From Bacteroidales bacterium (lineage in GTDB: Bacteria > Bacteroidota > Bacteroidia > Bacteroidales > P3), in the NCBI GenBank assembly GCA_031552355.1, contig JAVBMO010000069.1:1-43930 (forward strand): a DNA stretch of 43,930 nt, read 5' to 3'. Of this stretch, positions 1,195-1,690 are shown one piece after another (position 1 is the first letter of the stretch; every line of letters begins with the position of its first letter). A program made the position numbers and the translations under genes. The notes beneath the pieces were generated by a model. That model was not told the origin of the DNA. It ran no database searches and worked only from the letters and a program-made list of their open reading frames with translations.

Positions 1195-1272
1195 TAAATT
1201 TTAACATTTGTTTTTTTAGGAAAAATATTATAATTTTGTGCCATGTTAGAAATCCAAACCAAACATAATTTT
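1195..1272 (+). promoter_or_regulatory. Bacteroidetes-type promoter (-33 TTTG, -7 TAnnTTTG) plus conserved ~35-nt leader, copy 1
   Basis: TTTG at 1207-1210, a 20-nt spacer, then TAATTTTG at 1231-1238, then GCCATGTTAGAAATCCAAACCAAACATAATTTT. The whole ~78-nt block is homologous to 15366-15446. Confidence 0.55.
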
Positions 1273-1366
1273 CTATCCTTGGCTTTCAATTTTTCTATGT
1301 TGAAAAATATTGCTGATTTTAGCATTTTTTCACTAAAGAAATTTGGCGGTTTGGAATATTTTACTA

Positions 1367-1398
1367 ACACACACACACACACACACACACACACACAC
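1367..1398. repeat. (AC)16 dinucleotide microsatellite, followed by a GC-rich CGCGCGCG-containing patch
   Basis: 16 uninterrupted AC units counted at 1367-1398. The CGCGCGCG run is at 1412-1419, within the locally GC-rich 1398-1421, in an otherwise AT-rich intergenic region. Confidence 0.95.
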
Positions 1399-1544
1399 CG
1401 CGACCGGTGCTCGCGCGCGTCAAGTTAGCCTTTTTCAGGCAATTAAAAAAACTTCCTCTACTTTTTTTGCATTATTTTCGTTCTGCCTCAGGATGCAAAA
1501 TACTGCTGACTTTTCTATTTATTCAGCATTTGTTTTCCTTAACA

Positions 1545-1576
1545 AAAGGCACGGTCAAAGGCACGGTCAAAGGCAT
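1545..1576. repeat. 12-nt tandem repeat AAAGGCACGGTC x2 plus a partial third unit
   Basis: AAAGGCACGGTC at 1545-1556 and 1557-1568, then AAAGGCAT at 1569-1576. Confidence 0.8.
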
Positions 1577-1690
1577 AAGGGTTAAAGGCTTTGGCAGCGA
1601 AGCCTTTTCCTTGGCCGTGTTTTTTGCCTTGTATTCATCAACAAATAATCGAAATCTAATAACCAGTTCAACACTTAAACATTAAACATC

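Follow-up and report, generated by a model that had tools for sequence, protein, structure and literature searches.

A perfect (AC)16 tract as the candidate core of a repeat-gated leader-peptide attenuator upstream of an HU-like gene in a Bacteroidales genome

We propose that a perfect (AC)16 tract upstream of an HU-like gene in a Bacteroidales bacterium is the hypermutable core of a repeat-gated leader-peptide attenuator, a reading that we consider probable. The gain or loss of a single AC unit would probably switch the HU-like gene on or off at random, and perhaps also the giant surface-protein genes that lie behind it. The proposal builds on the layout of the locus, the recurrence of this layout in a family of related cassettes, the excess of open reading frames downstream of the tracts, and the different repeat numbers of near-identical paralogues.

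Layout of the (AC)16 locus

The window analysed here is an entire contig (C127) of 43,930 nt, which belongs to a 2.04-Mb, 197-contig assembly with a G+C content of 37.9% from an invertebrate-gut metagenome. The features of the locus are the following.

1207-1238, + strand: predicted promoter P1, read from the sequence, with the -33 element TTTG at 1207-1210, a 20-nt spacer and the -7 box TAATTTTG at 1231-1238
1243-1428, + strand: predicted leader ORF in the present (AC)16 frame, 61 aa, MLEIQTKHNF...FTN(TH)5RDRCSRASS*
1338-1366, + strand: A-rich motif abutting the 5' side of the tract, with TTTG at 1341-1344, 19 nt, and TA at 1364-1365
1367-1398, + strand: (AC)16 microsatellite, from TRF
1399-1479, + strand: conserved post-tract block, including the short-frame stop TAG at 1426-1428
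1549-1632, + strand: terminator-like hairpin, with core stems 1557-1569/1612-1624 and 1584-1593/1598-1607 and a U-run at 1620-1625
1583-1585, + strand: stop reached with (AC)17, inside the 5' half of the hairpin
1683-1685, + strand: stop reached with (AC)15, 5 nt before the ATG at 1691
1691-2398, + strand: gene with HU-DNA_bdg (PF14848, E = 2e-31) and DUF4469 (PF14734, E = 5e-26) matches

The tract, which the initial annotation had described as perfect and unusual, was recovered by TRF with a period of 2, 16.0 copies and 100% matches, and in every frame it codes for (Thr-His)n and is free of stop codons. Long dinucleotide tracts are indeed exceptional in this genome: the assembly contains only four AC tracts (n = 16, 17, 25 and 31) and one AT tract, and the next longest tract has 6 units. 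The predicted promoter P1 matches the Bacteroidetes primary-sigma consensus, TTTG-N19-21-TAnnTTTG. The ATG at 1243 lies 4 nt past the -7 box, as had been noted, and coincides with the predicted transcript start; a second ATG is present in the same frame at 1297. At the transcript start, the sequence (A/G)TGTT...AACAT (1243-1264 and its copies) allows a 5-bp stem at the extreme 5' end in all copies seen. This stem may serve as an mRNA-stabilising 5' hairpin, which would account for the conservation of the ATG or GTG independently of coding.

With the present 16 units, the leader ORF ends at 1428, and the other two frames form ORFs at 1343-1585 and 1407-1685, so that the three stops assigned from the letters alone hold, as do the element at 1412-1419 (CGCGCGCG) and, by its Pfam matches, the HU/DUF4469 gene. 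The tract is 292 nt from the ATG at 1691 and each of the three frames stops before this position. As the tract lies outside the HU/DUF4469 frame and the Pfam match begins at residue 1 of that ORF, the locus is not an in-gene frameshift switch. Likewise, the tract starts 128 nt past the -7 box at 1231-1238 and is therefore not a repeat between promoter elements. The three long open frames had been called unexpected; at this locus by itself they are only mildly unusual, being equalled by 49 of 2000 dinucleotide shuffles, and the openness becomes convincing only across the cassette family described below.

The hairpin at 1549-1632, which the initial annotation overlooked together with the repeated nature of the whole unit, has an RNAfold dG of -39.7 kcal/mol (z -4.48; 0 of 200 shuffles were as stable), includes a 12-nt tandem repeat at 1545-1575 (TRF), and was recovered also in the fold of the whole leader and in a scan for hairpins followed by T-runs. 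It is located between the short-frame stop at 1428 and the long-frame stops, with the (AC)17 stop inside it and the (AC)15 stop beyond it. Searches with Rfam 15 of window positions 1-3400 and of 11 related loci returned chance-level matches only, and a known RNA family was thus dropped as a candidate.

The 1691-2398 gene is the gated gene in our proposal and heads a unit whose later genes encode giant T9SS surface proteins. The order of a small gene followed by a signal-peptide gene of 1000-1800 aa is the same on contigs C127, C185, C81 and C64. The kilobase 5' of the cassette (232-990) is a mosaic of multi-copy intergenic repeats, in which the blocks at 351-467 and 499-579 have approximately 20 copies each on other contigs, the block at 575-809 has approximately 10, and the block at 806-990 matches C185 13917-14116, which lies downstream of the other HU/DUF4469 unit.

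A recurrent cassette with an excess of open frames

The four AC tracts of the assembly, (AC)16 on C127, (AC)17 on C185, (AC)25 on C81 and (AC)31 on C115, have common flanks, i.e. a TAnnTTTG box followed by (A/G)TGTTAG, the pre-tract motif and the post-tract block. The tract and block of the window (1358-1479) are 93% identical to C185 11712-11834, and both have the short-frame stop at the corresponding position. On C64, a fifth copy is complete except that TAACATG replaces the tract. The genes behind these five cassettes are the only two HU/DUF4469 genes of the genome (C127, C185), two close DUF6261 paralogues (C81, C64), and a partial ORF at a contig end that has no Pfam match (C115). On C64, at 1313-1975 (L052), a 220-codon ATG ORF runs across a leader composed of hairpin-containing units of approximately 47 nt; such units are also present in C81, and in G062:C9 there are 21-nt tandem units instead.

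Within the family of the host, 12 of 151 genomes, from 8 of 18 genera, have (AC)>=9 tracts, and within the order, 14 of 251 genomes, from 13 of 180 genera, have (AC)>=10 tracts. The device recurs among uncultured gut members of the order and is present in approximately 5% of the sampled Bacteroidales genomes, often in several copies (4-9 per genome), and these counts are underestimates because many tracts lie at contig ends, where short-read assemblies break. Most tract loci of the family have a TAnnTTTG box 100-225 nt 5' of the tract. The pre-tract motif, YTTG-N19/20-TA, is present at 14 of 18 distinct tract loci across families; since it falls in differing codon phases between cassettes, it is conserved as nucleotides and not as codons. 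A consensus RNA fold of this motif was not found.

Repeat numbers range from 7 to 49. In the genomes G062 and G072, eight copies have eight repeat numbers (7, 9, 10, 13, 14, 16, 19 and 22), and some pairs have flanks that are up to 98-100% identical. The predicted leader peptide of these copies is M..IR.I..NNVKNNSQKTCESHLFFVS(TH)n. The copies with n = 10, 13, 16, 19 and 22 all end in ...(TH)nFH*, and those with n = 14 and 9 continue in long frames; hence, five of the seven translated copies are in one short frame. G062 contains at least 8 tract cassettes and approximately 25 further loci at which the similarity is limited to the promoter and the initial 30-70 transcribed bases, and G028, of the same genus, contains none. 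The tract-bearing genomes encode MutS and MutL, and the tracts are therefore not a by-product of lost mismatch repair, an explanation that we discarded for this reason.

In each of the four tract cassettes of the genome of the window, a started ORF enters the tract and the present exit frame stops 4-9 codons later, and at least one of the other frames has 61-140 open codons and closes 5-204 nt short of the gene. At approximately 22 of 26 diverged loci by our own tally, the tract is entered by an ORF that starts with ATG, compared with 27.5% of 1538 control positions that lie upstream of long ORFs of the same genome as the window; because the 26 loci are mutually related, this is a conservation footprint and not 26 independent events. 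The frames downstream of the tracts were compared with dinucleotide shuffles of the tract-to-gene stretch, with the following results.

C81: longest frame, p = 0.001
C115: longest frame, p = 0.005
L014: longest frame, p = 0.006
L002: longest frame, p = 0.012
C127: longest frame, p = 0.053; second longest frame, p = 0.011
C185: longest frame, p = 0.062; second longest frame, p = 0.001

Five more loci were weaker in this test (p 0.06-0.29). Frames on the reverse strand were short at the loci listed above and long at the weaker loci L026, L015 and L022. The long frame ends 2 nt before the downstream ATG at L002, 5 nt before it at C127, overlaps it at L014, and ends 29-76 nt before it at L026, C115, C185, L015 and L004.

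A hairpin followed by a T-run lies past the short stop and within or just before the long stop at C127, C115, L004, L026 and, weakly, C185. At L004, L026 and C185 the long-frame stop is 8-24 nt past the start of the T-run, and at C115 the long frame continues to 33 nt before the gene. The hairpin-plus-T-run scan detected no recognisable intrinsic terminator in L002, L015 and the G062-type cassettes, in which Rho-dependent polarity on an untranslated C-rich leader could possibly replace it.

The start of the leader ORF is less uniform than the frames. The earlier suggestion of a leaderless start agrees with the C127 copy, in which the ATG is at the predicted start. The other copies do not follow it: GTG is at the position of ATG 1243 in C185, C81, C115 and C64 (4 of 6 copies), with a stop after 21 codons in the GTG frame of C81, and others use an internal ATG 5-55 nt past the predicted start. 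For a leaderless start, a GTG at +1 would be poorly suited. Moreover, the leader peptide sequences differ between copies, with the layout alone being kept, and the indels in the alignment of the C127 and C185 paralogues are not multiples of three; the case for the leader thus rests on layout. These three observations, i.e. the GTG in paralogues, the unconserved peptides and the out-of-frame indels, had led us initially to regard the ORF as accidental and the unit as a simple promoter cassette or a non-coding RNA. We dropped this reading because of the frame statistics and the cross-family layout.

The proposed switch, RNA evidence and alternative explanations

In the proposed mechanism, a transcript from P1 (1207-1238) would open with the short ORF at ATG 1243, which runs through (AC)16, and each AC unit gained or lost would place the ribosome in another frame. 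With 16 units, translation would end at 1428, leaving 120 nt to the hairpin, which would form together with its U-run, and transcription from P1 would end before the HU/DUF4469 gene. With 17 units, the ribosome would stop at 1585 inside the hairpin, which would be melted, allowing read-through. With 15 units, the ribosome would cross the hairpin and stop 5 nt before the ATG at 1691, giving read-through and possibly re-initiation on the gene. Replication slippage would thereby cause a heritable and reversible on/off switching of the HU-like gene, perhaps also of the surface-protein genes, within a population. The idea in the initial annotation that the repeat number sets the upstream frame and thereby translation or transcription into the HU/DUF4469 gene gains support from the recurring layout, long frames in excess of shuffles, a candidate terminator between the stops and the repeat differences between paralogues.

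RNA data were available as Logan contigs of one metatranscriptome (run X2) from the same study; Logan contigs break inside the tract. On the leaders of the four short-state copies (C127, C185, C81 and C115) there were no RNA contigs. For the genes themselves, the following was observed.

C127 HU gene, short frame, (AC)16: RNA contig at 1725-2396 with a depth of 8.8, starting 34 nt inside the gene; a second contig continues onward from 2379
C185 HU gene, short frame, (AC)17: RNA contig with a depth of 20 that begins 32 nt before the ATG and reaches the stop
C115 gene, short frame, (AC)31: RNA contig from +33
C81 DUF6261 gene, short frame, (AC)25: no RNA contig
C64 DUF6261 gene, tract-less, leader ORF open for 220-247 codons: RNA that begins 555 nt or more upstream of the ATG (depth 6.6) and extends across the gene (depth 13.7)

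The contrast between C64 and C81, the DUF6261 paralogues of which are 89% identical, and the missing leader RNA in the four short-state copies fit the attenuator model. By contrast, the RNA found close to the gene in three of the short-state copies is at odds with it; a promoter nearer the gene, processing of the RNA or a mixture of states in the population would be needed to account for this RNA. Positions 1626-1690 show no canonical TAnnTTTG box. For the window copy that consists of the promoter part only (15405), the RNA contig starts 81 nt past the predicted start, and contig ends in these data thus fall well short of true 5' ends.

The tract could instead act at the level of DNA, without translation, either because a second promoter starts in the tract or because the alternating AC/CG stretch modulates promoters in its vicinity as a Z-DNA or supercoil sink. 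The pre-tract motif agrees with such a role in that it has the spacing of Bacteroidetes -33/-7 elements, abuts the tract, and is conserved as nucleotides without a consensus RNA fold, and alternating CG or CA follows the tract in C127, C185, C81, C115, L004 and L014. However, the motif has no TTTG to complete a -7 box, and for this reason and the missing fold we rejected it as a second promoter or a pause hairpin; in many cassettes the tract is followed by CCCACCCACCC, which is not alternating, so that the Z-DNA alternative raised in the initial annotation finds no support; values of n from 7 to 49 are hard to reconcile with a spacing-dependent role; and the upstream ATG ORFs, the long open frames and the placement of the stops are left unexplained. 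We therefore regard a DNA-level role as quite unlikely. A flip of the promoter itself was also considered, and flanking inverted repeats as expected of an invertible promoter were not found.

An effect of tract length through an untranslated 5' leader RNA, by folding, RNase processing or Rho loading, seems to us rather improbable. The tract is downstream of a canonical promoter and therefore probably transcribed, (AC)n and the C-rich sequence after it are G-poor and unstructured, the whole leader folds better than shuffles (z -4.3), and the mature mRNA apparently lacks the leader, all of which such an effect would accommodate. It would not account for the excess of open frames; moreover, no part of the leader pairs with (AC)n, and a graded effect would not yield the three-unit periodicity of G062 and G072 (n = 10, 13, 16, 19, 22). 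Binding of the RRM protein RbpB was set aside as well, the reported motif being GUA-rich and not CA-rich. Finally, the tracts might be neutral, slippage-prone expansions of a TAACAC seed in a duplicating promoter-leader cassette and leave expression unaffected. Tract-less copies exist (TAACATG in C64 and CACAACACA in G062:C9), repeat numbers scatter widely and the promoter part occurs alone at the further loci of G062. Against neutrality, every tract is perfect, and orientation and position within the cassette are the same from family to family of the order; apart from (TC)n appended at two loci, expansion at this position is confined to AC; the genomes have mismatch repair genes; and the frame statistics argue for selection. 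Neutral expansion is the explanation to which we give the least credence. In total, we favour the attenuator.

A broader version of the attenuator proposal, which we judge unlikely, is that HU/DUF4469 proteins are phase-variable DNA-binding proteins that reprogram the adjacent giant surface-protein genes or a wider regulon, i.e. a 'phasevarion' based on a nucleoid protein and not on a methyltransferase, and that attenuators upstream of them were built independently in Bacteroidales, from (AC)n, and in Treponema, from poly-C or a heptamer.

Homologues in Treponema and relation to known systems

DUF4469 is present in 2 of 41 genomes of the family of the window, and the sole other copy (G014) has no upstream repeat. 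In a pattern scan, the nearest relatives of the HU/DUF4469 protein were found in a Tannerella metagenome-assembled genome (61% identity) and in many Treponema genomes (52-57%). The predominance of Treponema (L084-L095) among the closest relatives, together with the rarity of DUF4469 in the own family, suggests that the gene moved between phyla. Three of 11 Treponema loci have a repeat in an upstream ATG ORF, namely C15 at L086 (1238-1351), C13 at L094 (28-78) and (CAAACAG)9 at L087 (1176-1370). At all three, the present frame stops 4-14 codons past the repeat, and a clear intrinsic terminator is located 50-70 nt before the gene; another frame crosses the terminator and ends 13 nt (L094) or 24 nt (L087) before the ATG or, at L086, is in frame with the gene. 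Different repeats with the same layout at the same gene family in another phylum provide the best independent support for function. The exact HU protein sequence of the window was found in one Logan contig only, the species was detected in a single sample, and a scan of JGI metagenomes with the post-tract motif gave no match.

Slippage-prone intergenic repeats that control a neighbouring gene include (TA)n between the -35 and -10 elements of Haemophilus influenzae hifA/hifB, a promoter-spacer repeat, and the poly-G tracts that precede tpr genes in Treponema pallidum. The AC tract would resemble both in this general respect and differs from hifA/hifB in lying downstream of the promoter elements and not between them.

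The closest parallel is pil1 (and pil3) of Streptococcus gallolyticus, in which a GCAGA repeat in a leader-peptide gene makes attenuation phase-variable (Danne et al. 2014, PMC3894217). In pil1, the repeat number sets the length of the leader, longer leaders let ribosomes destabilise a stem-loop terminator, and most copies are off (PMC3894217). As far as the features can be read from sequence, the cassette design matches that of pil1: a repeat unit not divisible by three lies inside a leader ORF with its own start (here the ORF at 1243-1428 that holds (AC)16), the repeat number selects between one short and one or more long leaders (stops at 1428, 1585 and 1685), and a predicted stem-loop terminator lies past the short stop and is overlapped by the long frames (1549-1632). 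The two differ in the repeat, AC here and GCAGA in pil1, and in the host, which here is a member of the Bacteroidales with a TTTG/TAnnTTTG promoter, no Shine-Dalgarno sequence, and a leader start at or adjoining the predicted transcript start. Unlike in pil1, a long frame here reaches to within 5 nt of the ATG of the putatively gated gene, making translational coupling possible, the cassette is multi-copy with 4-9 copies per genome, and the first gene that would be gated is HU-like or DUF6261 and not a pilin gene.

In the 5'-UTR of H. influenzae hmw1A, the (ATCTTTC)n repeats themselves form an RNase III hairpin, through which expression falls gradually as the repeat number rises (Rapun-Araiz et al. 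2025, PMC12721329). Similarly to hmw1A, the AC tract is located between promoter and gene in a long structured leader and is predicted to act after the start of transcription; unlike the hmw1A repeat, (AC)n is unable to pair, and the evidence favours an effect of the frame, i.e. of n modulo 3.

We found no report in the literature of a repeat-gated leader switch in Bacteroidales. To our knowledge, nearly all phase variation described in gut Bacteroidales is recombinase-mediated promoter inversion. A repeat-driven, translation-coupled attenuator, if true, would be a second and much simpler route to surface variation in these bacteria. Moreover, it would mark HU/DUF4469 and DUF6261, families of unknown function that head giant-adhesin units, as being under selection for stochastic expression, and the occurrence of three repeat types with one layout in two phyla would offer a comparative test of the pil1 mechanism outside streptococci.

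Parts of the cassette and other tracts were also seen elsewhere. Promoter P1 and the first approximately 35 transcribed bases recur at 15366-15451 of the window; in this copy (15366-15540), the ATG at 15417 is at the predicted transcript start, and it is stop-free and in frame with a lipoprotein gene 120 nt downstream, which otherwise has only a TTG start before its lipobox and for which there is an RNA contig from 15498. The AT tract of the assembly is a perfect (AT)16 at C155 25696-25727 that has unrelated flanks and follows the hairpin-like sequence CCCCGACAAAGCAAAGCCTGTTGGGG. At L016 (G025:C134, approximately 10447-10488), an (AC)21 tract has a direct duplication of GGAAAAATCATCGTAGAAGA on both sides, is apparently coding and is not of the cassette type. 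Finally, L108 and L110, from other Bacteroidales families, have compound (AC)n(TC)n tracts at the same upstream position.
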